Shown here: one piece after another, positions 1-49,474 of the stretch
Numbering within the stretch: position 1 is the first letter of the stretch
How the letters are laid out: every line of letters starts with the position of its first letter
Assembly (NCBI GenBank): GCA_049322655.1
Contig: JBMORP010000006.1
Location: 576,410-640,409, forward strand
From: Patescibacteria group bacterium
Lineage (GTDB): Bacteria; Patescibacteriota; Microgenomatia; UBA1400; PJMF01
Direction of reading: 5' to 3'
Length of the DNA: 64,000 nt
The notes under the pieces: model-generated
The model's database searches: none
What the model saw: the letters and a program-made list of their open reading frames with translations, nothing else
Told to the model about the DNA's origin: nothing
Translations under genes and position numbers: made by a program

Positions 1-90
1 AATGCCGTGATTGGTTTTGTAGTAATGTTTGCTGCCTACTGGGCCGTTCAAGCTGTCAAAATTATTACTGGCGCTGATATACCTATCTAA
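1..90 (+). CDS. C-terminal fragment of a TrbC/VirB2-like pilin-family small membrane protein (partial; start lies outside the window)
   Basis: Frame-1 translation NAVIGFVVMFAAYWAVQAVKIITGADIPI* matches the conserved C-terminal helix (AIVGxxILxASYxxxxI) of the paralogs at 134-2681 and 35353-35775. Confidence 0.4.
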   Translation, partial: NAVIGFVVMFAAYWAVQAVKIITGADIPI

Positions 91-133
91 AACTAGCTAA
101 AAATAAAAAAAAGTAATAGAATAACCAGATAAA

Positions 134-541
134 ATGAAAAAACTTAACCAATTATTTTTTAGTTTAGCTTTTTTCTTAGCTTCCACTCAAATAGTTAATG
201 CTCAAGGCTCTTCTATTTTCGGTACAATTAAACCTCCAGCCGGGGTTGATAAATATGGCGATATTCAAAGCGGTGGTTTACTCCTTTTTGCCTCAAATGG
301 CATTAGATTGGCCACAACTGTAGCCGGTGTTTGGGTGATGCTTAACTTTATTTTGGCTGGCTGGAAATACATTACTTCTTCTGGTGATAGTAAAGCCGCG
401 AGTGAAGCTTCGACAATGATGACCAATAGTATTATTGGTTTGGCGATTATTGTTGGTTCCTATACCTTAGCAGCGATCGCTGGTTTGGTTTTCTTTGGTG
501 ATGCTACTTATATCTTGAATCCAAAAATTACAGGAGTTTAA
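134..541 (+). CDS. small secreted membrane protein, TrbC/VirB2-like (T4SS pilin-like) family, paralog 1
   Basis: Signal peptide ending VNA-QG, two hydrophobic helices, and a conserved core ITSSGDSKAASEA...IIGLAIIVGSYTLAAIAG shared with the downstream paralogs. Confidence 0.5.
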   Translation: MKKLNQLFFSLAFFLASTQIVNAQGSSIFGTIKPPAGVDKYGDIQSGGLLLFASNGIRLATTVAGVWVMLNFILAGWKYITSSGDSKAASEASTMMTNSIIGLAIIVGSYTLAAIAGLVFFGDATYILNPKITGV

Positions 542-546
542 AAAAC

Positions 547-918
547 ATGCAATTAGCACAAAAAACAACTAATATCGGCGGCTTCACTCCTCCCACTAAT
601 GCTTATAGTCAGGGCTCTAACTCGGCTGCAGGCGCACTGTCAAATCTTGAATTATTTATCTCAAACATTATTGGTTTTATGACTGCTATTGGCAGCGTTT
701 TCTTTGTCATTTACTTTGTTTTGGGAGCTTTTGAATGGATCACTAGTGGTGGAGATAAAGGCAAAGTGGAAAAAGCCAGAAATAGAATGATGAATGGAGC
801 TATTGGCCTAGTTATCTTGGTGGCTTCATATGCCATTATTGGTTTACTTGGTAGCTTTATTGGTCTTGATCTACTTAATCCAGCAGAACAAATTAGACAA
901 ATCTACGGCACAATCTAA
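547..918 (+). CDS. TrbC/VirB2-like pilin-family small membrane protein, paralog 2
   Basis: Conserved motif EWITSGGDKGKVEKARNRM-NGAIGLVILVASYAIIG, two TM helices, 5-nt spacing from the upstream paralog. Confidence 0.5.
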   Translation: MQLAQKTTNIGGFTPPTNAYSQGSNSAAGALSNLELFISNIIGFMTAIGSVFFVIYFVLGAFEWITSGGDKGKVEKARNRMMNGAIGLVILVASYAIIGLLGSFIGLDLLNPAEQIRQIYGTI

Positions 919-922
919 ACTT

Positions 923-1330
923 ATGAAGAAAAAACTCAACACCTTAATCACTACTCTAGCCCTCAGTCTAATGATGGCTTCTCCTGTTGAAGCAGAAATC
1001 ACTAATCCAGTGGTAGAGGGTGGCTTTGGGAGAGGCTCTGATCGAGCGGCTGCCGGCACAACCTTTGCTGAGTATTTTATCTTTTTTTGGAATGCACTCA
1101 TCAGTTTGGGGGCAATCACTGTGATTATCTTTTTTATTTGGGGCAGTATGGAATGGATTACTAGTGGCGGTGATAAAGGTAAAGTGGAAAATGCTAGAAA
1201 TAGAATTACTCAAGCAGTCATTGGCTTAGTAGTCTTAGTTGGTTCTTATGCCATTATTGGTTTCATTGGAGAAATTTTCTTTGGAGAAACCTTTAGTGTC
1301 TTACAAATTAATATTCCAGATCCAAAATAA
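923..1330 (+). CDS. TrbC/VirB2-like pilin-family small membrane protein, paralog 3
   Basis: Start re-assigned to the ATG at 923 (MKKKLNTLITTLALSLMMASPVEA signal peptide); the ORF-track start at 830 overlaps paralog 2. Motif MEWITSGGDKGKVENARNRITQAVIGLVVLVGSYAIIG. Confidence 0.5.
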   Translation: MKKKLNTLITTLALSLMMASPVEAEITNPVVEGGFGRGSDRAAAGTTFAEYFIFFWNALISLGAITVIIFFIWGSMEWITSGGDKGKVENARNRITQAVIGLVVLVGSYAIIGFIGEIFFGETFSVLQINIPDPK

Positions 1331-1332
1331 TT

Positions 1333-1674
1333 ATGTCAAAACTAATCGCAGCCACCGTCGATCTAGCAGGAAAAGCCCAAGGAAATTTACCTGGAGCGGT
1401 TAGTGCCGATCCCCAAAAAAACTTTGGCTCTCTACTTGGCGGTCTAATGGGTGGCATCATGATTATCGCGGCCATTGCGGTATTAATTTATTTACTCTGG
1501 GGAGGCCTAGAGTGGATCAGTAGTGGTGGAGATAAAGGTAAAACCGAAGCCGCAAGAAATAAAATCACACAAGCCGTGATTGGTTTGATTGTTTTGGCTG
1601 CCACCACCGCCATTTTTATGTTACTACAGAACTTTTTGGGTATTTGTGTCTTGAGTTTCGGAGGGAGTTGTTAA
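1333..1674 (+). CDS. TrbC/VirB2-like pilin-family small membrane protein, paralog 4
   Basis: Motif LEWISSGGDKGKTEAARNKITQAVIGLIVLAATTAIF; begins 3 nt after the stop of paralog 3. Confidence 0.5.
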   Translation: MSKLIAATVDLAGKAQGNLPGAVSADPQKNFGSLLGGLMGGIMIIAAIAVLIYLLWGGLEWISSGGDKGKTEAARNKITQAVIGLIVLAATTAIFMLLQNFLGICVLSFGGSC

Positions 1675-1757
1675 AGTTTTTTTGACTATTCTGCCAAATT
1701 CTTGATACAATTAGCAAACAGTTACTTAATAAGGAATAAAAAAATAAAAAGGATCAT

Positions 1758-2162
1758 ATGACAAAAGCCAGAAAATTAGTTATCTCTACAGGAGTTGCTC
1801 TAAGCGGTTTGGCTTCTAGTGTTTTACCAGTGACTGCTGCTACAAGAATCACTGATACCAATGTTGACCCTGGTAAGGGTTTTGCCACTGATTTTGGTGG
1901 GTTGATCAATGGTGTCTTGAGTTTTGTGATGGTGTTAGCTGCTCTCTTGGTCTTTTTGTACCTTATTTGGGGTGGTATTGAATGGATTACTAGTGGCGGC
2001 GATAAAGGTAAAACCGAATCTGCTAGAAACAAAATTACTTCTGCTATTATTGGTTTGATTGTGGTGGCAGCTTCATATGCTATCTTAACTTTAGCTTTGA
2101 ACTTCCTCGGCTTTTCAGATCTTAATGAGGTCTTTAATACCAGAACTATTCAAGGTAAGTAA
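1758..2162 (+). CDS. TrbC/VirB2-like pilin-family small membrane protein, paralog 5
   Basis: Motif IEWITSGGDKGKTESARNKITSAIIGLIVVAASYAIL; N-terminal signal and TM segment. Confidence 0.5.
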   Translation: MTKARKLVISTGVALSGLASSVLPVTAATRITDTNVDPGKGFATDFGGLINGVLSFVMVLAALLVFLYLIWGGIEWITSGGDKGKTESARNKITSAIIGLIVVAASYAILTLALNFLGFSDLNEVFNTRTIQGK

Positions 2163-2184
2163 AAGTACTTGTAAATTGATAAAT

Positions 2185-2215
2185 AAACCCCACATTTTTA
2201 ATGTGGGGTTTTTAG
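2185..2215 (+). terminator. intrinsic terminator after pilin paralog 5
   Basis: Perfect 11-bp stem AAACCCCACAT / ATGTGGGGTTT with a 5-nt loop, followed by a T-run. Confidence 0.6.
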
Positions 2216-2222
2216 TTTCTCA

Positions 2223-2230
2223 TGTATAAT
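2223..2230 (+). promoter_or_regulatory. extended -10 promoter element (TGTATAAT) for pilin paralog 6
   Basis: TGTATAAT lies 32 nt upstream of the ATG at 2262; an AGGAAAAG Shine-Dalgarno sits 6 nt before the ATG. Confidence 0.4.
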
Positions 2231-2261
2231 GCAATTGCCACTAAAAACAGGAAAAGCAGCT

Positions 2262-2681
2262 ATGTTTAAAAAAACTTTCAAGAGAATTTCTATCTTTGTT
2301 TACACAGCATTATTTTTTTTGTACTCAGCTATACCTGTTAAAGCCCAGGGCTCTAGTTGGAGTGGCGTGTGTGTTGACGATACCAACACCGATGTAGCTA
2401 CTCTTCAGGGTTTTCAATGTTTAATCGCCAGGCTATTGGGTAGCTTTTTAACCTTAGTTGGCATTGCGGCTTTTTTGATGTTAGTAGTTGCTGGAGTTAG
2501 AATTTTACTATCTGGAGGAAATTCTCAAGCAATAGAAAAATCAAAAAACTCAGTGACTTTTGCTATCGTCGGTCTAATTGTAGCCCTAAGTTCTTTTGTC
2601 ATTCTAAACTTACTTTCAGAATTTACTGGAGTAAAAAACATTCTTCAGTTTGTGATCCCTACTTCTGATACTCAGTGGTAA
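2262..2681 (+). CDS. divergent TrbC/VirB2-like pilin-family small membrane protein, paralog 6
   Basis: Start moved to 2262 (MFKKTFKRISIFVYTALFFLYSAIPVKA-QGSS signal peptide) because the 2229 ATG overlaps the -10 box. C-terminal core LSGGNSQAIEKSKNSVTFAIVGLIVALSSFVILNLL follows the family pattern. Confidence 0.45.
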   Translation: MFKKTFKRISIFVYTALFFLYSAIPVKAQGSSWSGVCVDDTNTDVATLQGFQCLIARLLGSFLTLVGIAAFLMLVVAGVRILLSGGNSQAIEKSKNSVTFAIVGLIVALSSFVILNLLSEFTGVKNILQFVIPTSDTQW

Positions 2682-2687
2682 TAAAGG

Positions 2688-3386
2688 CTATTTACCAAAT
2701 CTTCTTTTTCTCGAGTTTAACTCTTTAATGGCTTTTTCTAGTTCTGTTTGATCAAAATCTGGCATTAGTACATCCGTAAAATAAAACTCAGAGTAGTTGC
2801 TTTGCCAAAGTAAAAATCCAGACATTCTTTGTTCACCACTAGTCCTAATAATTAACTCCGGATCTGGCATATCAGCTGTATCTAAGTAGGTTGAAAACTG
2901 TGCGGTAGTTAATTTTTCGGCGGCTAACTTACCAGCCTTTACTTCTCTAGTTATTTTTTCGACTGCTCGTAGAATTTCATCTCTACCACCATAATTAAGT
3001 GCAATATTTAAAGTTAAGTTGGTATTATGCTTGGTTTTTTCTTGCCATAAGCTAATGTTGTCTTGAATATCTTGGTCAAATTTCGTTAGGTCACCCAAAG
3101 TATTAACCCTTACTCCCTCTTTGGCTAGTTTTTCTGCTTGGTGTTTAAAGATGTTTCTAAAAATATCCATCAAGGCTTTAATTTCTCTGGGCTCACGATC
3201 CCAATTTTCTGTACTAAAAGCCCACAAAGTTAGATACTTAATTTTCAAATCAAGAGCTGCTTTAACCACTCGTTCAATACCTTCATTAGCCATTTTTTGA
3301 TGACCAACAATCACATCAAGGCCTCTTTTTTTAGCCCATCGTCTGTTGCCATCCATAATAATTGCGACATGCTGTGGTATTTGCAT
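2688..3386 (-). CDS. uppS: undecaprenyl-diphosphate synthase (isoprenyl transferase)
   Basis: N-terminal HVAIIMDGNRRWAKKRGL and C-terminal RFG motifs typical of cis-prenyltransferases (UppS). Confidence 0.85.
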   Translation of the reverse strand: MQIPQHVAIIMDGNRRWAKKRGLDVIVGHQKMANEGIERVVKAALDLKIKYLTLWAFSTENWDREPREIKALMDIFRNIFKHQAEKLAKEGVRVNTLGDLTKFDQDIQDNISLWQEKTKHNTNLTLNIALNYGGRDEILRAVEKITREVKAGKLAAEKLTTAQFSTYLDTADMPDPELIIRTSGEQRMSGFLLWQSNYSEFYFTDVLMPDFDQTELEKAIKELNSRKRRFGK

Positions 3387-3476
3387 AAACTTCCCTTTTT
3401 AAACTATTGAATATTAGTCGTAAAAAAACTTAAAAACCTACAACCAGTTTTTTTATTTTATTACCAGAGGTAAATC

Positions 3477-15611: not shown

Positions 15612-17681
15612 CTAATTTTTTGGGGGAGAATAGTCATCAATAGTGTAATATCCAGCGTAAGATTGTTTGTTTGCTGCGACTTGTTGCTGAGAAGTTGTCT
15701 GAGTTGAAGGAAGGATTTGTTCTTCAACAGAACTCTCTTCAGCCTCTGTTTCTGAATTAATAGAAACTTGGTTTTCTAGTGGTGATTGTTGTTTATTAGG
15801 AATACCAAATGAAAACTTTGGTTTTTCCTTTGGTTGTTTTTGGGCTTCAAGTTGAGCTATTTTTAATTTTTTTTCTTCTTCTTTTCTCTTTAAGACTTCT
15901 TCTGGATTGGTAGTGATGACTTCATGTTCCTCATCGCTGGCTACCACTCTGAGGGCTACATGGTTTTGCCCAGCAAAAAAGATGCCCTCACCAACATCTG
16001 AAGATACTAATAACTGTCTTTCTCCTTCAGAAAGATAGAAAGTCTCTGCTAAAACTGGGATTGAAGCGGTAGATTGTTTCATTAAAAACTGAATCGAAGC
16101 ATTACTCACAATTGCTTTACCATAATCATTATGAATAAAATCTTCAACGTCTTGAGTGATAGTTGTAATTCCTAAATAATATTTTCTAGCCCGCTTAACC
16201 ATGGAGTGAATAAATGAAGCACTATCTTTATGCTTCATAAAGTACCAAGCTTCATCAATTACCAGGATTCTTCTTTTAAGATCTTTTTTAACTCTTGTCC
16301 AAATAAAATCAAGAATAATGAACATGGCAATTGGTCTAAGCTCTTCTTCCATTTCCTTAACAGAAAAAACAGTAAATGGATTAGTAATATCTAGGTTGGA
16401 TGGTTTATCAAAAATACCTCGAAAAGAACCAGTAATAAATTTTTCTAGTCTAGCCGCAATATCATTTGCTTCATCGTTTTCCATACCAATTAGAGCTTTA
16501 TAAAGATCTTCCATTAACGGTGGTTCATTGGTTTGAGTGACTGGGTCTGGAGTAATTCCTTTGGCCTTATAAGCCGAGATTAACGCCCTATCTAATAAAG
16601 CCTCTTGTTGAGAAGTCATGTTTCCCAGCATTACTTTTAGTAGGCCGTGAAGGGTAAGAATCTTTTGGCCAAGTTCATTTTCACCTTCTTCATACATGGC
16701 TGATAAATCAAATGGATTGATTTTAGTTTTTGAACCAAAAGTAAAGTTAATATATTCTCCGCCTACTTTTTTAGCCAACTCTTCATATTCATGTTCTGGA
16801 TCAAGAACAATTACTTCAGCATCAAACATTAATTGACGAATAACTTCTAATTTAACCGTGTAAGATTTACCAGCACCTGATTTAGCAAAAATCACCATAT
16901 TGGCATTTTCCATTTTAAATCTGTCAAAAATAACTAAAGAATCATTGTGCTCATTAATGCCATAGAGGATACCTGTTTCCATGGTAAGCTCTGAAGAAGT
17001 AAAAGGAAAAGTTGTCGCCAATGAAGTTGTATCCATATTGCGGGTAACCATTAACTTGTCTCTTCCCATTGGCAAGGTTGTTTTGAAGCCCTCATCCATT
17101 TGTAAAGTAGCCTTTTTAGAGACAATTAGTAATGAACCCAACATTGATTGAATGTTTTTGGTTACTTTATTTAAGCTGTCCAAACTGGGGGAAGTAAGGG
17201 TTACATAAAGCCCAAATTGAAAAAATCTTTCAGCGCCAGCTGCTAGTTGTTCTCTAATGGTTCTGGCATCGCCCAACTTAATTTCAGTATTAATATTACT
17301 AATTTTTCCTGACCTAATATCTGATTGGATTTCAGCCTCCATTTCAGTAATTTTTCTTTTCAAGTTATCTAAGACCTCAGCAGAGTCAACAGGATAAATA
17401 AACATCGAGATATTGGCTTGATTTGGATAATTAATCAAAGGAGATAACCAGTTGGCTGGAACTGTTCTTGGATAGCCAGCCACAAATAATGTTCTGGTGT
17501 AAGTCGAGTTGATTTGTTGATAAGTAAAATCAACTTCAATTGCTTCTGGCGCAATGATATCTTGAATTGTTACCAAACCTTGAGAAAACTCTTTGATTTT
17601 CTCCATTTGTTTTTGTTCAGGAGTTATTTCTGGCTGATTATCTGTTTTTTTTGGGTTTAAAAATGGTAACTGAAAGGGCAT
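15612..17681 (-). CDS. VirB4/TrbE-like type IV secretion ATPase
   Basis: Walker A FAKSGAGKSYTV, Walker B LVIDEAWYFM, and overall VirB4/CagE-like organisation (689 aa). Confidence 0.7.
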   Translation of the reverse strand: MPFQLPFLNPKKTDNQPEITPEQKQMEKIKEFSQGLVTIQDIIAPEAIEVDFTYQQINSTYTRTLFVAGYPRTVPANWLSPLINYPNQANISMFIYPVDSAEVLDNLKRKITEMEAEIQSDIRSGKISNINTEIKLGDARTIREQLAAGAERFFQFGLYVTLTSPSLDSLNKVTKNIQSMLGSLLIVSKKATLQMDEGFKTTLPMGRDKLMVTRNMDTTSLATTFPFTSSELTMETGILYGINEHNDSLVIFDRFKMENANMVIFAKSGAGKSYTVKLEVIRQLMFDAEVIVLDPEHEYEELAKKVGGEYINFTFGSKTKINPFDLSAMYEEGENELGQKILTLHGLLKVMLGNMTSQQEALLDRALISAYKAKGITPDPVTQTNEPPLMEDLYKALIGMENDEANDIAARLEKFITGSFRGIFDKPSNLDITNPFTVFSVKEMEEELRPIAMFIILDFIWTRVKKDLKRRILVIDEAWYFMKHKDSASFIHSMVKRARKYYLGITTITQDVEDFIHNDYGKAIVSNASIQFLMKQSTASIPVLAETFYLSEGERQLLVSSDVGEGIFFAGQNHVALRVVASDEEHEVITTNPEEVLKRKEEEKKLKIAQLEAQKQPKEKPKFSFGIPNKQQSPLENQVSINSETEAEESSVEEQILPSTQTTSQQQVAANKQSYAGYYTIDDYSPPKN

Positions 17682-18852: not shown

Positions 18853-19896
18853 CTAACTTGAACGAATTTCTAGCGGGGGAACCAGATTTCCACTTAAAGC
18901 AATAGTTTGTTCAGGAAAAGTCAAGCCAACTTTTTTTACTCCCACAACATAAGTGCCGTTGGGTAGTGCAGTACTTAAAGAAAATTGACCCAACAAGTTT
19001 GTTTTTAAGGCATTAATTACTTGTCCTTGGTTATTTTTTATTTCCACTACAGCCTGATCAACCAGTTTGTTATCTGGAGTTAAGACCATGCCAACTAAAG
19101 CATTGGGTTTATTGGGTTGTTTGGGAAAAGGAAGAGTGTTGTTAGTGACGACTTCTTTGGTTGGCAGTGAAAAAGATTGTGTTGGCAAATCAAACTTCGT
19201 TGATTCAACAGCAGGGGTATCTAGCTGTGGAGCTTGACTTAATGATTCATTTTGCGCAATGATTTCTTGCTTTTGGTTTTTTTGTTGTTGCTGAAAAATC
19301 ACGTTTTCTGAGCTAGCTACAGGAATAGTTTTTTGTTTGGCAAGATTTCTTGGTTTAGTAGTTAGTTTCGGTTTTATTTTTTGTGGTTTAGCGATCACTT
19401 CGTCGACTTTGACATCATTGTATTGAGCCAAAATATTAGCCATTCTTTGTTGGTCATCATCGTCTAATTGGTTTTTTTCAGTGTTAGAGCTAACAGAGTT
19501 TAAGTATTCTCTAATTCTCTGTCTTCTAGCTGGGGTTAAGTCAATTTCAAATTCTTCCTCTTCTTTGGTTTTTTCTCTTTTAATATGTGTAAAGGCAAAC
19601 GGAACTTCAGTCTCTTTTTTCCAATAAAACTTAGTAGGACTATACAATCTTCTAAAAAAAGTAGTGATCCAATGATCTAGGGGTCTTTCTTCAATGGGTA
19701 CAAAAGCCACCATTGCCCCAAAGCCTGCCGATAAAATAATTAATGGCCACTTAATAAAAGCAATTAAATTGGTATTGTAAATAATTACGCCAATTACTAC
19801 CCCAACAGCAATCTCTGCAAATTGTTTCAGGGTCATGTTTCCAACAATGTGGAATTTGTAACCAACGACGTCCTGTGGAATTGGATGTTCTCGCAT
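18853..19896 (-). CDS. membrane protein with PrgI/VirB3-like N-terminal TM hairpin and a C-terminal beta-rich domain
   Basis: N-terminal ~100 aa carry two TM helices (IAVGVVIGVIIY...LIILSAGFGAMVAFVPI), as in Gram-positive T4SS PrgI-like proteins. The call rests on position and topology only. Confidence 0.35.
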   Translation of the reverse strand: MREHPIPQDVVGYKFHIVGNMTLKQFAEIAVGVVIGVIIYNTNLIAFIKWPLIILSAGFGAMVAFVPIEERPLDHWITTFFRRLYSPTKFYWKKETEVPFAFTHIKREKTKEEEEFEIDLTPARRQRIREYLNSVSSNTEKNQLDDDDQQRMANILAQYNDVKVDEVIAKPQKIKPKLTTKPRNLAKQKTIPVASSENVIFQQQQKNQKQEIIAQNESLSQAPQLDTPAVESTKFDLPTQSFSLPTKEVVTNNTLPFPKQPNKPNALVGMVLTPDNKLVDQAVVEIKNNQGQVINALKTNLLGQFSLSTALPNGTYVVGVKKVGLTFPEQTIALSGNLVPPLEIRSS

Positions 19897-19936: not shown

Positions 19937-20917
19937 TTACTCTGCTACTTTGACAGCTGGAGCAATTATTTCTGCCTGGATTTTTTGATTATCTTGGTTA
20001 ATTATTTCTCCTGAAAAATGATAAAAAGGATAAGCTAAATTGTTTTTTAAATCGGCTCGGTATTCCAATTGAACAGCGGTTAGATCTCCAGCCACAATCT
20101 CTTCTAAACTGAACACGCCGGTATTTGGCTCATAGGCAGAAATAATAGAGGCATATTGTTTGTTATTAATGTTTTCCAAAACTTCTCCCAAAGAAAGGAT
20201 TTTAAATTGTTGTTCAGTAGGCAGCGGGTAGAAAAAATTAGGTTGAAAAACTATTTTTTGAACTTGATATTCACTATTAACCAGAATCGTTAAAGGAAAT
20301 TTTTCTCTATGTTCTATTAACAGCGGAACACCATCAACACTATAAGTAAAAGGAATCTCCAAAGCAGCAATCTGCCCAGTTTTGACTTCTTCCATTTCTT
20401 GTAAACCAGAAAACTTTTTAATTTTATCTAACTGAATAGTAAATGGGATTTGATCAAAAACTTCGTTAACATAGTTTTGAGCAACAGTGATGGCCCTATC
20501 TCTGCTTGTCAAGACAACATCTTTGGGTAAATAGTTAGAGTAAAAAAGGTATTCATCATCTTGATTATTATAAGAAAGAGTATAATTTTCTCCTTTCCAC
20601 AAACCATCAATATTCTCAACTGGTTTTAAGTTATGAGTTTCAATAAATCGTTTTTTTAGATATTCAACATTAGTGTTGCTGGGTTGAATCTTTACTAGAG
20701 GAAGATTGTTTTTGAGTGTGGGCAAATCGCCAGAAAACTTAATATTATTGAAGTGAGATTTATTACCATCGCTATTGACTTTGATAAATTCATTTTCTGG
20801 GATGACAACATTTTTTGGTGTAATAAACCTAAAAACCACAGTTATAAAGATTCCGACACAACTCACAATGAACAACATGACATACCATTTTTTATTTTCA
20901 AATAAGTTTTTATTCAT
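19937..20917 (-). CDS. bitopic membrane protein (possible VirB8-like T4SS component)
   Basis: Single N-terminal TM (WYVMLFIVSCVGIFITVVFRFI) followed by a ~290-aa extracytoplasmic domain. The assignment is by topology and position only. Confidence 0.3.
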   Translation of the reverse strand: MNKNLFENKKWYVMLFIVSCVGIFITVVFRFITPKNVVIPENEFIKVNSDGNKSHFNNIKFSGDLPTLKNNLPLVKIQPSNTNVEYLKKRFIETHNLKPVENIDGLWKGENYTLSYNNQDDEYLFYSNYLPKDVVLTSRDRAITVAQNYVNEVFDQIPFTIQLDKIKKFSGLQEMEEVKTGQIAALEIPFTYSVDGVPLLIEHREKFPLTILVNSEYQVQKIVFQPNFFYPLPTEQQFKILSLGEVLENINNKQYASIISAYEPNTGVFSLEEIVAGDLTAVQLEYRADLKNNLAYPFYHFSGEIINQDNQKIQAEIIAPAVKVAE

Positions 20918-23900
20918 AACAAGTCCTCACTGGATCGTTAACCTTAACACTAGCTCCATCAGGCATTAAAGCGGGAAGTGTCCCAGAATTTGGGGCACTA
21001 CCTCTGAGCTCAAAGTGAAGATGCGAGCCAGAAGAGTTGCCTGTGTTTCCCATTTGACCAAGTACTTCTCCAGCCACAACATCTTTACAAGACTGAATAT
21101 TGCTAGATCTAAAGTGCCCAAAAACAAAGGTACCAACTTCAGTTTCAGATAAAACAACATGAATACCATAACCAGGATCTAGATTTCCTGGACAGGCTTT
21201 ACCAGAAAAAGGCGCAAAAATAGTAGTGCCTTCACTGTTAGCAATATCAAAAGCATCAACTCTGCCATGAGAATAACTACCGCCTGGTAGCTGGGTGATG
21301 GTTCCACTCGCTGGCCAACAGCCAGCCCCCTGAGAATAATCACCAATATAAATAACCTCTCCAGTAATGGCATTATCAGTGCCTTCAACTCCTGTTTGAG
21401 AATCTTTGGCAAAGACCTTGAGGTCAAAAGTATTCAGTACAGAAGAATGATTGTAGTTGCTATCGAGAGATTCTGAGTAAGTTAAAACAACCGACTCTCC
21501 AGGTTCAATAATCATTTCTTCATATAGTTCTGGGAAATCAGCTAGTTTTTTGATTCGTTCTGGGACGGTAGGTGGTTTTTTCCCTTCATGTTCTTCCCAA
21601 GCTTTTTCACTATGATTAACTTTCATGGTGTCAGTAGCATCAAGGACTTGAACAGTGTAATTACCTTTTGGGGTAATGGTGATAGTGTATTCAACCTTAA
21701 TCGGAAAGGCTGGATTTTCACATTTATTTTCTGGACAGCCAGCAATAAAGGCTCTTTTTTCAATAGTGACATATTCTGATTCTTTACCTGGAATAGAACC
21801 AGAAACAGTACTTAAAGGATCAACAATTGGGAAGTCAGCAACTAAAGCACTAGAAATTGTAGATTGTACTAACAGTCCAGTGCCAGCAACCGTGGCAATT
21901 GTACCGAGAACTGCTTGACCACCAATATGAACGATTGATTGACCAATAAAACTGGTTGGCTGTAGGGTGGTTGCCTCAGCAAGACCCTGAGTTGTTGTTT
22001 GGGCTGCTGCCACAGTATTGCCAGTAGCCCCATTTTGAAACGAATAATAATTCTGGCCTTTTTTTCCAGTAAAGATCTCTTCTAAAAGTTTACCAATTCC
22101 GAAACCTCCTCCAGCTCCAATTCCAACGCCAATTGCAGCCCCAACCGGCCCACCAATAAAGAAACCGGCAATTCCGCCCCCAATAGCCCCCAAAACTGTT
22201 GGGATTAAAGTTAATAATGATTGAGCAGCATTAATTAAAAAGTAAGCTAGAGATCCCAAACCCAATCCACCCAACGCCATAAGAGTTTGTCGACCTCTTT
22301 TGGTGGTAGCTAGTTTAGTTAAAAAACCCAGTGCTGGGTGAATAGCTGTTGTTGCTGTAGCTGCAGCTTTACTAAGGCCAGCTTCAGCTGCTTTGTCGGC
22401 AGCCTTGCTAGCTGCTTTTTTGCTAAGTCGAGATCTTAGTCCTTTGACCCCTCTTTTTAATCTACCACTAAGCCCTCTGCTCCTTCTAGTAAATTGATTG
22501 ACATTAGCTAGCGGACTTTGTAAAACACCATTGTCTGGAATATAACTAGAATTAAAGTTGTTTATCTCTTCGGTGTTATAAAAGGCCGCTCCGCCAAGTA
22601 GGGGAGCCATGTCATGGAGACCAATTTCTTTGGGATAAAAATCTGGGGTTTCAGCAATATTTTGGATTGTTTTACTACCAGCTTCGCCATAACCAAGCAC
22701 CACAAGAATTTCTTTTTTGGTTTCAGTGTCTTTAGCAGCCCAAACTTGTTTTAAGAAAACCTCTCTTTTTTCAGCATTGGTAACACCTTTTTTATCATTA
22801 AAAAACTCGATTACTTCCTGAGGATTTTTAACAGGAGCCTCTTTACTACCAACGAGGATTTGTTTAGTTGGAGTAGCGATGGCTCTTTCAAAAACTTGAT
22901 CTGCTTCTTTTTTATTTAAAACTTGCTTGTTTTCATCCAGCAAAGCTAAAGCTTCTTGGGTGGCGAATTTAGCTTCGTTGTGGAGTAAAAGTTGACCAGT
23001 TCTTTTGCCAATAATTGAACGTCGAGCAATCCAAATTTCACCAATTGTTGACAAAAACTCTTGATTAAAAGGAATTTCTTCACCAAAAATTAGTTTAAAT
23101 CTGCCTTCATCAACATATTGAAGTAAATCTAGTGGTAGCCCTTGCAAAATCCAAGAATCAACTACATTAACTACATTTTTTTCAGCTAGAGTTAGTTTAT
23201 CTGCCTGAACCCCAATTCTTTGTAGTTCACCTTGCAGTAGCTTGGTAGCTTCTTTGGCTAAATAGTCATCTTTATCTTCAACCAGTTCCTCTTTTTTTAG
23301 TTCCCCAAAAACTTGTTCTAGAGCTGGATGTTGAGCTAGGTTTGTCACCAGCTCAGAAACGGCTGGCCCAGTGCCAGCCTCAGCTTCTTGAAGAGCAGTC
23401 TCGATTTTTTCTCTAAGTTCTGGATTTTTATTGTTGCTTAAGGTTTCGGTTAGATGAGTAGAAATAAGGGCAGTAGTTCTAAAGTCATTTTGCACCAACC
23501 AGACATATTCTCGAATTAAAGTGAGTCTAGTCTCAGGATTAACCAAATCATCTAAGCGACCATTTCCCAAGGTAGTTAAAAAGAAGCCCAAAGTTTTATC
23601 TGATAGGACTCTTTGTAGATCTTTGGAGTTGGCAAGAGTTCCTGGTGGTAAACCATGTTGTTGTTCCAATTGAGCTAAGGCAATTCCAGTAAAATTGGCG
23701 GCTTGTTCTCTTAGTTCTTTGCTAAAAAGAATGTTTTTAGTAACGAGTGGATCATTTTGTTCTTCTTGTAATTTGTCAGGAGGTTGGGTTTGAACTTCCT
23801 CTTCACTAGTAGTTCCACCAGAATCACTATCAGTTGCTGCAGTTTGTGGGGCCCCTGCTGAAAGAGGTTTATTTTCTTCTACGACTTGTTCTTCTGGTTT

Positions 23901-24479
23901 TGCTTCTTCTTCGCTTTCTGGCTCTGCTTGAGCGTTGAGATCTTTATCTTCTTTGATTTTAATAAGATCTAAGAGTAGTTTGGCAGTACTACCAATGTAG
24001 TCTGTCAACAAAACATTTAACTCATGATCATCTTTACCAGTAATCTCTAATTGATTGTAGGCGTGTTTTTCACAGGAAATGATAATTACAAATAAAATTT
24101 GTAAGGTATCTTTATCTAGTTCCAATTTGCCAGCATCAACTTCTTTTTGATACCAGTTATTAATGTCACCCAGGAAGTTATTTGCTATATCTGTAAACAA
24201 AAAAGCTAAATCACTTTTATAAAGGAAAAAATTCAATTGATCAGCCAAATGATCTCTAGAAATGATGTAGCTTCTATCTTTAGTGGTTAGTTTGAGGCTA
24301 CTAGTATTAACTTCTTTGAATAAACTTTGAAAAGAAAAATTTAATTCTGGTTCACTAGCAATATTAGACCTAGTTAAAAGTTCTAAGAAACCTTTGATTG
24401 TGTCCAAATTAACATCATCCCTTAATCTCTTTAAGAAATACCTCTCTTGGCCAGTTAATTTAGGCTTTGCATCGGACAT
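20910..24479 (-). CDS. giant multi-domain protein (1189 aa): N-terminal acidic domain, Gly-rich TM region, C-terminal M23 (LytM) peptidase domain; putative T4SS cell-wall hydrolase
   Basis: C-terminus DVVAGEVLGQMGNTGNSSGSHLHFELR is the M23 HxH catalytic motif. The central segment LGGLGLGSLAYFL...GGGFGIGK is a Gly-rich membrane region. Confidence 0.6.
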   Translation of the reverse strand: MSDAKPKLTGQERYFLKRLRDDVNLDTIKGFLELLTRSNIASEPELNFSFQSLFKEVNTSSLKLTTKDRSYIISRDHLADQLNFFLYKSDLAFLFTDIANNFLGDINNWYQKEVDAGKLELDKDTLQILFVIIISCEKHAYNQLEITGKDDHELNVLLTDYIGSTAKLLLDLIKIKEDKDLNAQAEPESEEEAKPEEQVVEENKPLSAGAPQTAATDSDSGGTTSEEEVQTQPPDKLQEEQNDPLVTKNILFSKELREQAANFTGIALAQLEQQHGLPPGTLANSKDLQRVLSDKTLGFFLTTLGNGRLDDLVNPETRLTLIREYVWLVQNDFRTTALISTHLTETLSNNKNPELREKIETALQEAEAGTGPAVSELVTNLAQHPALEQVFGELKKEELVEDKDDYLAKEATKLLQGELQRIGVQADKLTLAEKNVVNVVDSWILQGLPLDLLQYVDEGRFKLIFGEEIPFNQEFLSTIGEIWIARRSIIGKRTGQLLLHNEAKFATQEALALLDENKQVLNKKEADQVFERAIATPTKQILVGSKEAPVKNPQEVIEFFNDKKGVTNAEKREVFLKQVWAAKDTETKKEILVVLGYGEAGSKTIQNIAETPDFYPKEIGLHDMAPLLGGAAFYNTEEINNFNSSYIPDNGVLQSPLANVNQFTRRSRGLSGRLKRGVKGLRSRLSKKAASKAADKAAEAGLSKAAATATTAIHPALGFLTKLATTKRGRQTLMALGGLGLGSLAYFLINAAQSLLTLIPTVLGAIGGGIAGFFIGGPVGAAIGVGIGAGGGFGIGKLLEEIFTGKKGQNYYSFQNGATGNTVAAAQTTTQGLAEATTLQPTSFIGQSIVHIGGQAVLGTIATVAGTGLLVQSTISSALVADFPIVDPLSTVSGSIPGKESEYVTIEKRAFIAGCPENKCENPAFPIKVEYTITITPKGNYTVQVLDATDTMKVNHSEKAWEEHEGKKPPTVPERIKKLADFPELYEEMIIEPGESVVLTYSESLDSNYNHSSVLNTFDLKVFAKDSQTGVEGTDNAITGEVIYIGDYSQGAGCWPASGTITQLPGGSYSHGRVDAFDIANSEGTTIFAPFSGKACPGNLDPGYGIHVVLSETEVGTFVFGHFRSSNIQSCKDVVAGEVLGQMGNTGNSSGSHLHFELRGSAPNSGTLPALMPDGASVKVNDPVRTCYE

Positions 24480-35236: not shown

Positions 35237-35292
35237 AAGTTTATTATACCTTGAATTAAATGGATGTCCCAAAGCAAAGGTAGTCAAGTTGT

Positions 35293-35352: not shown

Positions 35353-35775
35353 TTAAAGAATTTTTACCCCAAAGATAATCTCTAGGATTTGGGCTACCCA
35401 ATAAGAAGCAAACAAAATCAAAAAACCAACAATAGCCATGGTGACTCGTTTTTTACCTTCTTCTAAGCTTTTAGCATTAGTCGCTCCAGCTAGAATTTGT
35501 AACCCACCGGCTACAATCATGACAAATAAAGCTAAACCAGCAATTGGAAAAGCAAAAGTTAGTGCTCGGCTAATGATTCCTCCTGGGGTAGAGAGTTCAG
35601 CTGCATGGGGGGAGTTAGCTACTTTTAGTGGATCAAATGAGTCTAAAACATCAGATGTAACTTCATAAGAGTTTTCTTCAGCTGGTAAATCGGCAGCATT
35701 AACTAGAGTTGGAGAAACTAAACTTAGCCAAACTAGACTGGTTAAAACTAGCATTTGTTTGATTTTATTATTCAT
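35353..35775 (-). CDS. TrbC/VirB2-like pilin-family small membrane protein (paralog 8)
   Basis: Start set to the ATG at 35775 (MNNKIKQMLVLTSLVWLSLVSPTLVNA signal peptide; GGAGG SD 8 nt upstream). C-terminal LAGATNAKSLEEGKKRVTMAIVGFLILFASYWVAQIL matches the family core. Confidence 0.5.
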   Translation of the reverse strand: MNNKIKQMLVLTSLVWLSLVSPTLVNAADLPAEENSYEVTSDVLDSFDPLKVANSPHAAELSTPGGIISRALTFAFPIAGLALFVMIVAGGLQILAGATNAKSLEEGKKRVTMAIVGFLILFASYWVAQILEIIFGVKIL

Positions 35776-35779
35776 GTTT

Positions 35780-37006
35780 TTAGCCTCCAAAACCAGGGAT
35801 CTGGAATAGGTTGACACCAATAAATCTTAGCATGGTAATAGAGAAGATGATAAAGACCATGCCGATAATAGCTGAAGTAATCTGCTCTTTAGCATCTTTG
35901 GTTGCTTGTGGGTCTCCTTGAGAAACAGATAATCTAAATGCTCCAGCCAGAATTAGTAAGAAGGTGGCACCCCCTCCAACGCTTAAACCAACGGTAATAA
36001 AGGTTTTGATAATGCTATCAGGTTTAGCTGGAATACAGCCAATCGCAGTCCACACGCCAGCATTGCCATTGAAAGTTTCTCCACCGAAACAAGCTTGGCA
36101 TTTATCCCGGTCTTCAGCTGTAGCCTGTTCACACAGTTCAAAGTTTTTCACCATCACGTTCTCAGAAACATCAGTTCTAATGTCATCACACATTTCGTCT
36201 TCACAGTAGTCAATGGTGTTAAAACTAGTTGAACAGCCAGGAAAAATATATTTGGGACCTTCAGCAGTCTCTACATGAATTTTATAGGTAGTTTGATTGT
36301 CAGCTTCAAAACTAGCAGAGGCTTTACCTCCTGTAGCTTTGGTTTTTTCGTCAGCAGTGCTCCCACCCTTAATGACAAATTTTACTTCACCAGAGAAGGG
36401 TTTGCCTTGTGAATCTTCCAAACCCTCGACTTCTATTTTGGTGGTAGAAGAAGTTGTGTCCATGCAGCCAGATGAATAACAGGTTTGCCCATCCCTACTT
36501 TGTGAAACATACAAAGCACATTTGCCACCAGTGTTGTTGTTGCTAGTTTTATAAGTACCAGCATCACAGATTTTTGAACCATTTTTATAGATAGAAATAT
36601 AATGTTCTGCTTCTTCGCCACTGATTCCCCAGTGAGTTAATGCACCTTCTTCTTTAATTGTCCAAGTAACCTTACCATTTTTTAAGTTAAGAGTATTGCT
36701 ACCATTGGTCAGAGTACCACTTTTGGTAGTTTTAAATTTGGCTGAAGTTGCTTGAGCGTCTCCCCACCAGCCACTAACAACTATTTCGTATTCACCATTT
36801 GGATCATAACCACTACTCATATCGATTTCGATAGTGTGAGAGGTGGTGCCAGCAGGCAAAGTGCCTCTTGCTCCACTCAGTACGCCACTACATGAGCCAA
36901 CAGCTTCCACATTAGTGACACTAATTGCCAAGAAAGATAATCCCAAAAAGATAGTAAGGAAAATTTTTTTAACCAAAACAAAAAATGATTGATAAGTCTT
37001 AATCAT
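35780..37006 (-). CDS. secreted Cys-rich ectodomain fused to a C-terminal TrbC/VirB2-like pilin module (candidate minor pilin/adhesin)
   Basis: Signal peptide, a ~300-aa Cys/Thr/Gly-rich domain, then IGCIPAKPDS...GDPQATKDAKEQITSAIIGMVFIIFSITMLRFIG, which matches the pilin-family core. Confidence 0.5.
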   Translation of the reverse strand: MIKTYQSFFVLVKKIFLTIFLGLSFLAISVTNVEAVGSCSGVLSGARGTLPAGTTSHTIEIDMSSGYDPNGEYEIVVSGWWGDAQATSAKFKTTKSGTLTNGSNTLNLKNGKVTWTIKEEGALTHWGISGEEAEHYISIYKNGSKICDAGTYKTSNNNTGGKCALYVSQSRDGQTCYSSGCMDTTSSTTKIEVEGLEDSQGKPFSGEVKFVIKGGSTADEKTKATGGKASASFEADNQTTYKIHVETAEGPKYIFPGCSTSFNTIDYCEDEMCDDIRTDVSENVMVKNFELCEQATAEDRDKCQACFGGETFNGNAGVWTAIGCIPAKPDSIIKTFITVGLSVGGGATFLLILAGAFRLSVSQGDPQATKDAKEQITSAIIGMVFIIFSITMLRFIGVNLFQIPGFGG

Positions 37007-38838: not shown

Positions 38839-39165
38839 TTAGACAAAAGCTCTTTTTAGGCCAAATTTATTGAGAGGATTGTTGGTTGTGACTTGATTAT
38901 TTTTGGTTAAAGATGGTAGTTGAGGGATTTTACTAGGTTCAATGGCAATTTTTTTTGGTTCAGGTAAGGTCTTAAGTTGTTGTTGATCTAGCTTAGGGGC
39001 TTCTTTTTGTGGAGATAGTAGGTGAATATCTTTACTATTATCATAAGGTCTGATGATGGCAATTGGTTTTGAACGATACATTAATAGGAAACTCTCTCCT
39101 TTGTTCAATGCTCGATGAATGGGAGAAAAACTTTGTCTGAACTGTTTCATTGACACAATTTTCAT
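38839..39165 (-). CDS. hypothetical protein
   Basis: 108-aa ORF, no recognizable motif. Confidence 0.3.
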   Translation of the reverse strand: MKIVSMKQFRQSFSPIHRALNKGESFLLMYRSKPIAIIRPYDNSKDIHLLSPQKEAPKLDQQQLKTLPEPKKIAIEPSKIPQLPSLTKNNQVTTNNPLNKFGLKRAFV

Positions 39166-47260: not shown

Positions 47261-49474
47261 TTATTGTCTTTTTTTGGAGTATCTCTCTCGGCTAACTTTA
47301 ATTACTTTATCTTTATTTTGGTTGCTGCTTTTGGCTAAGCCCAAAGTTCTAGCTGGGAAAGGTTTACTAATTACGTTATCAATAGAGATGCGGTTAATAA
47401 TTTGGTATTTTTCTAGGGAAACTAGTTCCTCTGGGGTGTAGTGTTCACCAAACTCTCGGCTAAAAACTTGGGCGTCTTCTGAACCCATGACAAAACTAGC
47501 CGTACTTCCACAGTTACCAAAAATAGCTTTTTGTACTTCTTCTGGTATTTGGGCAATGTATTGGTTGGCCAAAGTAAGGTTGAGTCTATATTTTCTAGCC
47601 TCTGACAAAATCTTGATAAAAGCTTCAGTGGCAAAATTTTGAAACTCATCAACATAAAGGTAAAAATCTCGACGCTGTTCTTCTTGAATTTGAACTCTAG
47701 TCATGGCTGCTAGTTGAATCTTGGTAATCATCATCGCACCCAAGAGAGTAGCATTATCTTCACCCAATTTTCCTTGAGAAAGATTGACCAATAAAATCTT
47801 GCCTTCATTCATAATGTCTTCAATACTAAAAGAGCTTTTATGAGCATTGACCACGTTACGAATCAACGGAGAAGAAGTAAACTGACCAACTTTATTGAGA
47901 ATTGAGGCAATTGATTCGGTTCTCAATCTATCTTGCATCTTGTTATATTCATCCACCCAGTAACTTTTCAGAATTGGATCTTCTAGGTTTTCAACGTATC
48001 TATCTCTAAATTTTTTATTAGTTAACAGTTCCAAAATGTCAGATAGTCTGGCATTTTCACTAGTCAATAGTGTAAGCAAGGCATTTCTTAAGATATATTC
48101 AAGACGAGGACCCCAAGAATAGCCATAAAGTTTTTGAAAAATCGAGATAATACCAGAAGCGATTAGCTCTCGATGGACGACGTTTTTACCTTCAAAAAGA
48201 TTGATTTGCACTGTTCTTTCTGGATCACTTGGGTCAAAATAGATAACATCGTTAATTCTTCTAGATGGAATGTAGTTAAGTAAGGTCTCGACTAGGTCTC
48301 CATGAGGATCAATAACACACATTCCCTCATTGTTTTTTAAGTCATTAATAGCCATGTTGGCCAGCAGGGTGGATTTACCAGTTCCGGTTTTACCAATCAC
48401 ATACATGTGTCTGCGACGATCTGCTCGTTTGAGGCCATATTTAACAGCCTTATTTTTATAAGTAGTTTCAGCAAACACATTAGTGCTGTTTTTAAGTTCT
48501 GGGTCAGTGTCTCTGGTAATAATTGGTAAATTTTCTGGTGGCTCACCAAGTAGATTTTTACCCCAGGCAATATTAGGAATAACCTCCAAGTTTTTGTTGG
48601 GGAGGTGATAGAGGGTGGCTAGTTCATCAAGAGTTAAATGAACTTTTTTAGATCTAAAAAATGAGCGGGCTTGCATCATTTTCAAGAAATGCTCTTTGAA
48701 AAAATAGTTTTTGCGTAAAACTAAAGTATTACCTTCACTTTTTGAAATCGAGTTATACGTGGCAGCCAGTGTTTCTAAAATCAAGTCGCTTCTTTGGGCG
48801 GAGTCTGTTCTAACTGCCAGTTTAATACCTACTTTTAAGGCTTCTTTTTTTAGCTTTTCTTCAATCAAAGCTTTTTGTCGGTGATAACCACTGGTCGCAT
48901 CATCGATAGATTTACCCTGAATTTCTCGCCAACCTTTGTTTTTCCAGTTATCTGTATCTGGTGAAACTAAGTACTGAAGGTGAACAATGTCACTTGGTTG
49001 GCTTTTTGATAGACTGGCCAAGAGAGAAGCAAGTGGATCAACATTTTTAAAATCCAAGTAGGTTTTCATTGGTAAATATTCTGCATTAGTCAAACCAAGA
49101 CTACCAGTTTTGACAAAGGAAGGGGTAATTAACTTGCCGTTTAGGTCGAAAAAATCGACAATGGGGTCTTCTGGATTCTCTGTAATTAAAGCTTCTGGGT
49201 AGCTGGCAATAATTGCTCCTCTGACATATTCCATTAATCTAACGGGCAAATACATTAGAAACTTAATTGTTTGATCCCTGACAAATATTTCTAGACTAAA
49301 TGACTCATTTTTACTAATTAGTTGGTAAAAAATATTATTATGTAGTTTGGGTAGAGTAGAAAGAAATTGAACCGCTGTCTCTGGGGTGTGTTCGGCATCT
49401 CTACCTGTTCTAATTTCTAAAATAGTATGTGGAGTCATAATGATAATTTCCATTATATACAGATATCTGTTCAA
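47261..49474 (-). CDS. TraD/VirD4-like (FtsK/HerA superfamily) ATPase, candidate type IV coupling protein; exact start uncertain (ATGs at 49474, 49453, 49438)
   Basis: Walker A YVIGKTGTGKSTLLANMAIND followed by VIDPHGDL, and Walker B YLYVDEFQNFAT ~190 aa downstream, as in conjugative coupling proteins. Confidence 0.5.
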   Translation of the reverse strand: MNRYLYIMEIIIMTPHTILEIRTGRDAEHTPETAVQFLSTLPKLHNNIFYQLISKNESFSLEIFVRDQTIKFLMYLPVRLMEYVRGAIIASYPEALITENPEDPIVDFFDLNGKLITPSFVKTGSLGLTNAEYLPMKTYLDFKNVDPLASLLASLSKSQPSDIVHLQYLVSPDTDNWKNKGWREIQGKSIDDATSGYHRQKALIEEKLKKEALKVGIKLAVRTDSAQRSDLILETLAATYNSISKSEGNTLVLRKNYFFKEHFLKMMQARSFFRSKKVHLTLDELATLYHLPNKNLEVIPNIAWGKNLLGEPPENLPIITRDTDPELKNSTNVFAETTYKNKAVKYGLKRADRRRHMYVIGKTGTGKSTLLANMAINDLKNNEGMCVIDPHGDLVETLLNYIPSRRINDVIYFDPSDPERTVQINLFEGKNVVHRELIASGIISIFQKLYGYSWGPRLEYILRNALLTLLTSENARLSDILELLTNKKFRDRYVENLEDPILKSYWVDEYNKMQDRLRTESIASILNKVGQFTSSPLIRNVVNAHKSSFSIEDIMNEGKILLVNLSQGKLGEDNATLLGAMMITKIQLAAMTRVQIQEEQRRDFYLYVDEFQNFATEAFIKILSEARKYRLNLTLANQYIAQIPEEVQKAIFGNCGSTASFVMGSEDAQVFSREFGEHYTPEELVSLEKYQIINRISIDNVISKPFPARTLGLAKSSNQNKDKVIKVSRERYSKKRQ

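Follow-up and report, generated by a model that had tools for sequence, protein, structure and literature searches.

We consider it likely that the region at the start of the window (the whole 64,000-nucleotide stretch of DNA analyzed here) belongs to a seven-gene array of VirB2-like pilins of a chromosomal, monoderm-type type IV secretion system (T4SS) in a Pacebacteria-like patescibacterium (CPR), and that its products are seven differentiated, non-interchangeable subunits. As a kind of system such an array is already known, and nothing in it is new in kind. Positions 1–2681 contain the 3′ end of one PF18895 gene followed by six complete PF18895-type genes. The earlier note on this DNA had described a tandem array of pilin paralogs with a partial first copy, which was confirmed by gene calls, by HMM searches and by L002, a sequence 100% identical to the window that extends further upstream and was the source of the full-length pil0. 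With this upstream contig sequence the array was found to comprise exactly seven consecutive pilin genes on the + strand (pil0–pil6), and not “at least” seven as first described, because it is flanked by a divergent sigma factor gene upstream and by uppS downstream. The features are summarized in Table 1. The mechanical open reading frame start of pil3 at 830 is an over-extension, and an alternative ATG of pil6 at 2229 falls within the −10 box.

Table 1. Features of the pilin array and of its T4SS and origin context in the window (signal peptides and their cleavage positions, marked by a slash, are predicted).
Feature	Position	Strand	Description
pil0, 3′ end (last 29 codons and stop)	1..90	+	Full gene from L002, 111 aa, without signal peptide; first of the array
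pil1	134..541	+	135 aa; signal peptide (..IVNA/QG) and two-helix hairpin; divergent member
pil2	547..918	+	123 aa, without signal peptide; core EWITSGGDKGKVEKARN; two hydrophobic segments
pil3	923..1330	+	135 aa (L001 gene call also 135 aa); signal peptide (..PVEA/EI)
pil4	1333..1674	+	113 aa, without signal peptide; closes the tightly packed pil0–pil4 block
Sigma-70-type promoter-like site	1682..1711	+	TTGACT-18-TACAAT, with TG; in the 83-nt gap, 5′ of pil5
pil5	1758..2162	+	134 aa; signal peptide (..PVTA/AT); most conserved type
Intrinsic terminator	2185..2216 (stem 2185-2211)	+	12-bp stem AAACCCCACATT/AATGTGGGGTTT, then T run; 3′ of pil5
Extended −10 element	2222..2229	+	TGTATAAT; 5′ of pil6
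pil6	2262..2681	+	139 aa; signal peptide (..PVKA/QG); divergent type
dnaN	12633-13736		Pfam
dnaA	14006..15496	-	Pfam; origin region, 11.3 kb from the array
VirB4-like T4SS ATPase	15612..17681	-	P-loop_TraG, AAA_10, DUF87
PrgI (VirB3-like) family protein	18853..19896	-	PF12666
1189-aa protein	20910..24479	-	C-terminal M23 peptidase domain, PF01551
Two further PF18895 genes	35353..37006	-	Adjoining the T4SS block; 155 aa, and 408 aa with C-terminal pilin domain
VirD4-like coupling protein	47261..49474	-	TrwB_AAD_bind, TraG-D_C

The Pfam search proposed in the earlier note was passed by six of the seven paralogs for T4SS_pilin (PF18895, gathering score 26.6 bits), with 27.5 bits for full-length pil0, 42.6 for pil2, 33.0 for pil3, 31.3 for pil4, 41.2 for pil5 and 34.9 for pil6. 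pil1 scored below this cut-off (17.2 bits) and was detected at 30–46 bits by HMMs of other paralog types; in general, type-specific HMMs, each representing the orthologs of one paralog, picked up the remaining paralogs at 12–115 bits. The cut-off of TrbC/VirB2 (PF04956, 27.9 bits) was reached by none of the window paralogs, the best being pil5 (15.8 bits, E 0.016). Among 40 relatives (alignment A2), PF18895 was matched by all 40, CagC by 7, and PF04956 by 24 at E≤0.05, with a best E of 2.8e-8. Judged from their sequences, the window proteins are TrbC/VirB2 relatives at the superfamily level, as had been suggested, and not members by the Pfam cut-off; on the same grounds a VirB2-like assignment of the array proteins is supported. 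When the family profile was compared with all PDB sequences, no pilin was matched, and in NCBIfam only sub-threshold matches were obtained, to the Mycoplasma ICE “pilin-like conjugal transfer protein” NF045849 (17–33 bits vs. a cut-off of 40).

Hydropathy analysis and AlphaFold2 both showed the topology typical of VirB2, two hydrophobic α-helices separated by a short positively charged loop, here DKGK.E.ARN(K/R). The AlphaFold2 model of pil5 is a hairpin (H46-78/H83-116) with pLDDT above 90; the mature form was modeled at about 80. In fold searches, two models returned no significant match, the best pilin being the Aeropyrum pernix conjugative pilus 8dfu at an E of about 2. By hydropathy, a signal-peptide-like N-terminal segment ending in V-x-A is present only in pil1, pil3, pil5 and pil6, and pil1 has three hydrophobic segments; pil0, pil2 and pil4 consist of the two hydrophobic helices alone, with no room for an upstream start. 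The earlier note had called all seven secreted proteins; a segment of this kind is seen in the former four only. The conservation profile of pil6 shows two conserved cysteines in its mature N-terminus. A prepilin-peptidase motif is absent from all seven sequences.

The intergenic gaps from pil0 to pil5 are, in order, 43, 5, 4, 2, and 83 nt, so that five nearly abutting genes, as originally described, are a fair account of the gaps of 5, 4, and 2 nt and not of those of 43 and 83 nt. The tightly packed pil0–pil4 would be transcribed as one unit, pil5 would have its own promoter and terminator, and pil6 its own promoter. The terminator–promoter pair noted before the divergent last gene is present, as a stem followed by a T run and the extended −10 element; it is not the only such signal, as a second promoter-like site, before pil5, had been overlooked. 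An equivalent of the latter is present in 52 of 55 related loci, and promoter-like sites at the pil1/pil2, pil2/pil3, and pil3/pil4 junctions occur in 8–20%. Terminator-like hairpins were found 3′ of pil5-type genes at 36 of 73 and 25 of 51 junctions, with stem sequences that vary from species to species, and at the five junctions from pil0/pil1 to pil4/pil5 in 0–2 of 49–69. Upstream of pil6-type genes, 36 of 73 loci have a promoter-like site. Since an Rfam search of positions 1–3500 gave no RNA family match, the hairpin at 2185–2211 is taken to be just a terminator. The neighboring ECF-like sigma factor was considered as a driver of the array and rejected: the element before pil0 is an ordinary TATAAT box, conserved 7–12 nt before the ATG, and not an ECF-type promoter. 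The relation between this sigma factor and the array is one of synteny, with no evidence of control.

The cumulative GC skew has its minimum at about 12–24 kb. Quinonero-Coronel et al. (2025, PMC12102498) define an array as at least two tandem (or one-gene-separated) VirB2/PF18895 genes in a genome with a Patescibacteria-clade VirB4; here, seven tandem genes occur together with a VirB4-like ATPase (placed by its Pfam domains), a PrgI protein, and an M23 hydrolase beside dnaA. The M23 protein is a candidate T4SS cell-wall hydrolase. Patescibacterial pilin arrays have been published in PMC12102498, PMC10633639, and PMC12857230, and the first of these counts 441 arrays of 2–11 VirB2-like genes, which abound in Microgenomatia and go with a T4SS close to dnaA. 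The tandem PF18895/VirB2-like genes of Microgenomatia and Saccharimonadia described there, with low within-array identity, match the window, and the layout is likewise one of a T4SS near dnaA with a VirD4-like gene distant from virB4. The window array lies ~13 kb from virB4, whereas the published arrays stand beside it; otherwise nothing essential differs. In its searchable text, that article does not describe a fixed type order, internal promoters or terminators, or a neighboring sigma factor. The array is thus unusual, as the earlier note held, when set against classical T4SSs, but not within Patescibacteria, where such arrays are published and were present in all 80 of the related genomes fetched.

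An experimental counterpart is SEML1_0014-0019 of Southlakia epibionticum ML1 (Wang et al. 2023, PMC10633639), six tandem same-strand PF18895 genes of a monoderm-type T4SS, as here, some of which match TrbC (PF04956) as well. All six array pilins scored as essential for epibiotic growth by Tn-seq (PMC10633639, Table S1), a result to which polar effects and small gene size could partly contribute. S. epibionticum belongs to another class (Saccharimonadia), has six genes as opposed to seven, and carries the array inside the T4SS cluster; the likeness is at the level of the array. The classical VirB2, TrbC, and TraA pilins (T pilus, RP4, F pilus) are small proteins with two hydrophobic helices and a short basic loop, with a VirB4 ATPase encoded alongside, which is also the case here, and their N-terminal leader has a counterpart in four of the seven window paralogs. 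However, the classical systems are diderm, each with a single pilin gene whose product forms a homopolymeric pilus, whereas the present system is monoderm and has seven differentiated genes, and no pilus has been reported for it. In addition, the array loop is ~8 residues longer than that of Agrobacterium tumefaciens VirB2, and direct profile-to-sequence similarity to this protein (sequence verified against 8cue) was not significant (hhalign, E 0.047, probability 1%). To our knowledge, all conjugative pili solved so far are homopolymers, each of a single VirB2-type pilin. In logic only, the array resembles the major and minor pilin operons of type IV pili and T2SS pseudopili, which share with it differentiated small-pilin paralogs in a fixed order and one separate gene that is presumably more strongly expressed, as supposed for the array; fold and machinery are unrelated.

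The N-terminal mature parts of the paralogs are wholly different from one another beside a common loop, as the earlier note had observed, and this had been read as a sign of variable or exchangeable variants. The paralogs would then be interchangeable versions of one exposed pilus subunit, used singly or mixed, giving surface variation for different hosts or for defence evasion, a role that has been proposed for virB2 paralogs in Bartonella and Anaplasma. The idea is raised in PMC12102498 too, where host-range versatility is proposed. It would also agree with an array length that ranges from 6 to 12 among related species, the additional copies sitting at the pil1 and pil5 positions, and with within-genome pil5-type duplicates that are 65% identical in the core and only 32% in the N-terminal part. 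We nevertheless find it improbable, and the conservation data of the window array do not favor it. The seven types occur in identical order in 72 of 73 species-level genomes (0.1 expected by chance), and each has a distinct N-terminal motif that is kept across 55–111 orthologs; for pil5, orthologs are 50–88% identical across species. All seven copies are intact and under purifying selection in comparison with a 93.5%-identical strain (dN/dS 0–0.17), with none of the disabling mutations that the earlier note had allowed for. The core EWITSGGDKGKxExARN, quoted as common to all seven paralogs, is found only in pil2–pil5, with diverged versions in pil0, pil1, and pil6, and the cores of pil2–pil5, described as near-identical, share 57–74% identity over 42 residues. 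Recent gene conversion keeping these cores alike was rejected because their synonymous sites are close to saturation (pS 0.44–0.74) and the DNA repeats are only 64–78% identical; long identical tracts or a low-dS core, as expected from cassette exchange, are absent. Furthermore, pil1–pil4 are translationally packed in one unit with gaps of 2–5 nt and are therefore co-expressed and not alternatives, and every one of the six S. epibionticum array genes scored as essential. The virB2 clusters of Bartonella and Anaplasma phagocytophilum also have several tandem virB2-like genes per T4SS, and they are thought to be strain-variable for antigenic variation (PMC12102498; PMC3556328), whereas here each position is conserved under purifying selection. 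Strain variability, conversion tracts, and silent or partial copies, the marks of an antigenic-variation cassette, were not seen in the array.

The hairpins might instead never leave the cytoplasmic membrane, where they would belong to the T4SS translocon, or they might form an envelope-spanning stalk, with no extracellular filament in either case. In the accessible text of PMC12102498 and PMC12857230, a T4SS pilus is reported for no Patescibacterium or other monoderm, and the filaments solved by cryo-EM from a Saccharimonadia species are Ig-like Pam pili and not VirB2 pili (bioRxiv 10.64898/2026.03.03.709456). This preprint, whose subject is a “novel pilus system in CPR”, was set aside as a precedent for the array, its Pam pilins being unrelated. 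The weak NF045849 matches also point toward membrane components, and seven fixed types would suit a defined complex better than a homopolymer. The family is, however, related to the TrbC/VirB2/CagC pilins, exposure outside the cytoplasm is suggested by the signal peptides and by type-specific ends that face outward, and a pil5 with a promoter and terminator to itself suggests one subunit in excess, as in a polymer; we give a role without an extracellular filament only a minor chance, though a better one than surface variation. Far less credible still are unrelated small membrane proteins (holin-like, bacteriocin immunity, or generic two-TM) that resemble pilins through hydrophobic composition only. 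Hairpins of this kind do match many unrelated membrane families weakly (TctB, DctQ, WLS-like_TM), and the fold searches do not discriminate. Against this stand the curated PF18895 cut-off exceeded by all but pil1, the TrbC match in orthologs, a PHROGs search for holin-like families without a match at E≤0.01, the T4SS genes linked on the same chromosome segment, and the homologous S. epibionticum array inside an essential T4SS cluster.

For the preferred reading, a VirB2-like array of differentiated subunits, we propose the following mechanism. Each product would enter the cell membrane as a small helical hairpin, four of them by way of a predicted cleavable Sec signal peptide and three without one, so placed that the basic inter-helix loop (the EWITSGGDKGKxExARN of four paralogs) would be cytoplasmic and both termini would point outward. 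The VirB4-powered machine encoded next to dnaA would assemble the pilins into an envelope-spanning or extracellular tube, in which, by analogy with the F and T pilus, the lumen would be lined by the conserved loop and the surface would carry the ends that set the paralogs apart. The seven paralogs would be old, differentiated subunits, none able to stand in for another, and pil5 may be the abundant (major) one. We also put forward, more tentatively and at somewhat less than even chance, that a heteromeric VirB2-type assembly requires each of the seven types, none of them redundant, with pil5 as its bulk and pil0–pil4 and pil6 as low-copy base, tip or adaptor components, in a monoderm T4SS needed for the epibiotic lifestyle.

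Few systems have been shown to be essential to a cultivated Patescibacterium in its host-dependent life, and the T4SS with its pilin series is one of them (PMC10633639, PMC11665869). For this locus, the comparative picture narrows the hypotheses worth testing in cultivable species: the fixed order of seven types, the one type with its own promoter and terminator, and the mixed signal-peptide status point to a defined multi-subunit structure over surface variation, and the pil5-type protein is the candidate major subunit to seek in filaments or tomograms. If true, a VirB2 structure of seven fixed components, conserved across a CPR class, would give type IV secretion a new architecture.

The tandem pilin-paralog array described in the earlier note is real and comprises exactly seven genes (pil0 to pil6) rather than at least seven, because in L002, an identical contig reaching further upstream, a complete pil0 (111 aa) lies beside a divergent sigma-factor gene, while uppS ends the array on the other side. 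A Logan assembly contig was 100% identical to the window and a contig of GCA_964433225.1 93.5% identical. The nearest named relatives are Candidatus Pacebacteria MAGs (NCBI phylum Minisyncoccota, CPR), and the database entry for one array protein gives its source as 'Patescibacteria group bacterium'. The chromosome has a low GC content (~36%).

Features of the pilin array and its surroundings (window positions)
Feature	Position	Strand
pil0, last 29 codons	1-90	+
pil1	134-541	+
pil2	547-918	+
pil3	923-1330	+
pil4	1333-1674	+
TTGACT-18-TACAAT site	1682-1711	
pil5	1758-2162	+
Terminator, then T run	2185-2211	
TGTATAAT	2222-2229	
pil6	2262-2681	+
Mature pil6	2346-2681	
dnaN + dnaA	12633-15496	
ORFs between VirB4 and extra pilins	17716-18801, 19937-20917, 24539-26254, 26567-29818, 29896-31644, 31723-32598, 32615-35287	
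Two further PF18895 genes, far end of T4SS block	35353-37006	-
Small ORF	38839-39165	-
VirD4-like protein	47261-49474	

In a Pfam search, six of the seven array genes scored at or above the curated cut-off of PF18895 (T4SS_pilin) and pil1 fell under it (17.2 bits), while the cut-off of PF04956 (TrbC/VirB2) was reached by no protein of the window. HMMs built from the orthologs of a single window paralog, hereafter a type, found the remaining types at 12-115 bits, and all seven genes are therefore homologous. In an alignment that joined pil5 to orthologs in other genomes and to its paralogs in the window, PF18895 matched 40/40 sequences, PF04956 24/40 (best E 2.8e-8) and CagC 7/40; the proposed TrbC/VirB2-like assignment was right. 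The AlphaFold2 model of pil5 is a confident two-helix hairpin (pLDDT >90). Fold searches, a method that cannot separate such hairpins, had their top pilin match in the conjugative pilus of A. pernix, with an E of ~2. Sequence and profile comparison of solved VirB2 with the pilin family showed no significant similarity. A PHROGs search returned no holin-like match.

The core EWITSGGDKGKxExARN, previously ascribed to the whole array, is common to pil2-pil5 only (57-74% pairwise identity over 42 core residues) and has diverged in pil0, pil1 and pil6. An N-terminal signal-peptide-like segment (SP) ending in V-x-A is found in pil1, pil3, pil5 and pil6; in pil0, pil2 and pil4 the two hydrophobic helices stand alone, with no space for an upstream start. 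From pil0 to pil6 the two kinds alternate (none, SP, none, SP, none, SP, SP). In the three proteins lacking the segment, an 'AQ' close to the N-terminus is still conserved; it resembles the A|Q site for cleavage in pil1 and pil6 and may be left over from a leader since lost. In pil6-type proteins the mature N-terminal part carries two conserved cysteines (C..TLQGF.C) absent from all other types, suggesting a disulfide-stabilised exposed loop.

Scanning one genome per species yielded at least 545 core-motif loci, and pilin-like genes were present in 80/80 of the loci kept, nearly all of which have 6-12 array genes where the array does not meet a contig end. With each array gene of the 80 loci labelled by its best-matching window paralog, the order 0-1-2-3-4-5-6 was non-decreasing in 72/73 loci (chance expectation 0.1); all seven types occur together in 38 loci, and additional copies are found chiefly at positions 1 and 5. 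The mature N-terminus bears a conserved motif distinctive of each type (55-111 orthologs per type), and whether a signal peptide is present depends largely on the type, less clearly for pil0. Relative to the 93.5%-identical strain, none of the seven genes is disrupted, and their dN/dS values lie at 0-0.17. Recent gene conversion is ruled out, since the shared core approaches saturation at its synonymous sites and the DNA repeat is only 64-78% identical. Together, these sequence comparisons speak against the variable, exchangeable or phase-variable subunits envisaged earlier and argue for seven differentiated parts. The pattern envisaged earlier is seen only in lineage-specific pil5-type duplicates (65% identity in the core vs 32% in the N-terminal part).

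Both members of the internal terminator-promoter pair, the terminator and TGTATAAT, were confirmed, and a TTGACT-18-TACAAT site overlooked before lies in the 83-nt gap preceding pil5. In 52/55 loci a sequence scan placed a sigma-70-type promoter no more than 110 nt ahead of the pil5-type gene, compared with 8-20% at the 1>2, 2>3 and 3>4 junctions. Terminator-like hairpins, whose stem sequences vary from species to species, follow pil5-type genes at 36/73 and 25/51 junctions and occur at 0-2 of 49-69 at each junction from 0>1 to 4>5. Spacing within pil1-pil4 is only 2-5 nt. Promoters, terminators and spacing together make pil0-pil4, pil5 alone and pil6 the likely transcription units. pil5 is the most conserved type, and we infer that it would be the abundant subunit.

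The divergent gene upstream (L002 9020-9595, - strand; L002 position 9868 is window position 1) ends 26 nt before pil0 and encodes a 191-aa ECF-like sigma factor (Sigma70_r2 + r4_2), followed by a 60-aa ORF with a hydrophobic tail. Among 81 related loci, at least 60 have such a sigma factor ahead of the array, including some that have lost the downstream uppS/valS synteny; the word 'sigma' is absent from the accessible portion of PMC12102498. A TATAAT box conserved in many species 7-12 nt before the pil0 ATG (L002 9596-9621; equivalents in L006-L052, related loci) implies a leaderless or nearly leaderless pil0 mRNA from a housekeeping-type promoter with its -35 region inside the sigma factor gene.

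The array lies ~11 kb from dnaA. The dnaN/dnaA pair is immediately adjoined by genes for a VirB4-like ATPase, a VirB3-like PrgI protein and an M23 peptidase protein of 1189 aa. On the - strand, genes run in the order dnaA, dnaN, rnpA, yidC, jag. Cumulative GC skew dips to its minimum at ~12-14 kb and once more at 22-24 kb, consistent with an origin in the dnaN-dnaA-virB4 region. The two further PF18895 genes encode 155 aa and 408 aa; in the latter the pilin hairpin is confined to the C-terminus (residues ~329-397), the N-terminal 320 residues have no Pfam match, and the protein may represent a fusion of a pilin with an exposed domain. Between VirB4 and these genes, seven ORFs (291-1083 aa) match no Pfam family above threshold; the sole hit among them is weak and Bacteriocin_IIc-like, over a stretch of the 582-aa ORF (E 0.0057). 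The seven are candidates for unrecognised VirB6/VirB8-like T4SS parts. The small ORF, flanked by SpoIID-domain and VanW-domain genes, has a weak, below-cut-off Phd/YefM antitoxin match (E 6.7e-4).

In the proposed mechanism, the hairpins would be membrane-inserted, their basic loop pointing inward and both ends outward, four paralogs entering via Sec signal peptides and three without. The VirB4-driven T4SS would then assemble them into an envelope-spanning or extracellular tube; judged from F and T pili, the lumen of this tube would be lined by the conserved loop, with the type-specific ends exposed on its surface. Pilus formation itself we infer: no VirB2 filament has been seen in any Patescibacterium so far, and the filaments that have been solved from one species are Pam pili, built of Ig-like pilins unrelated to VirB2. 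The main rival is that the array proteins are membrane or stalk components and a pilus is never made.

The array was thought unusual, yet such arrays are published for Patescibacteria. Quinonero-Coronel et al. (2025; PMC12102498) used PF18895 and PF04956 to search 3,035 Patescibacteria genomes and reported 441 arrays of 2-11 VirB2-like genes, notably in Microgenomatia and Saccharimonadia, with an average identity of 25% inside arrays and the T4SS often near dnaA. In Southlakia epibionticum, predicted pilins that are essential form a series within the T4SS cluster (Wang et al. 2023; PMC10633639), 6/6 being scored essential in Table S1 (SEML1_0014-0019), as a 2025 review restates for the series. 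With the 80/80 related loci, the kind of feature, family and near-origin position are therefore published and lineage-typical, and the pilin array belongs to a kind already known. Modest leads, not found in the published text open to searching, are the fixed arrangement of seven types and the separate transcription unit of pil5.
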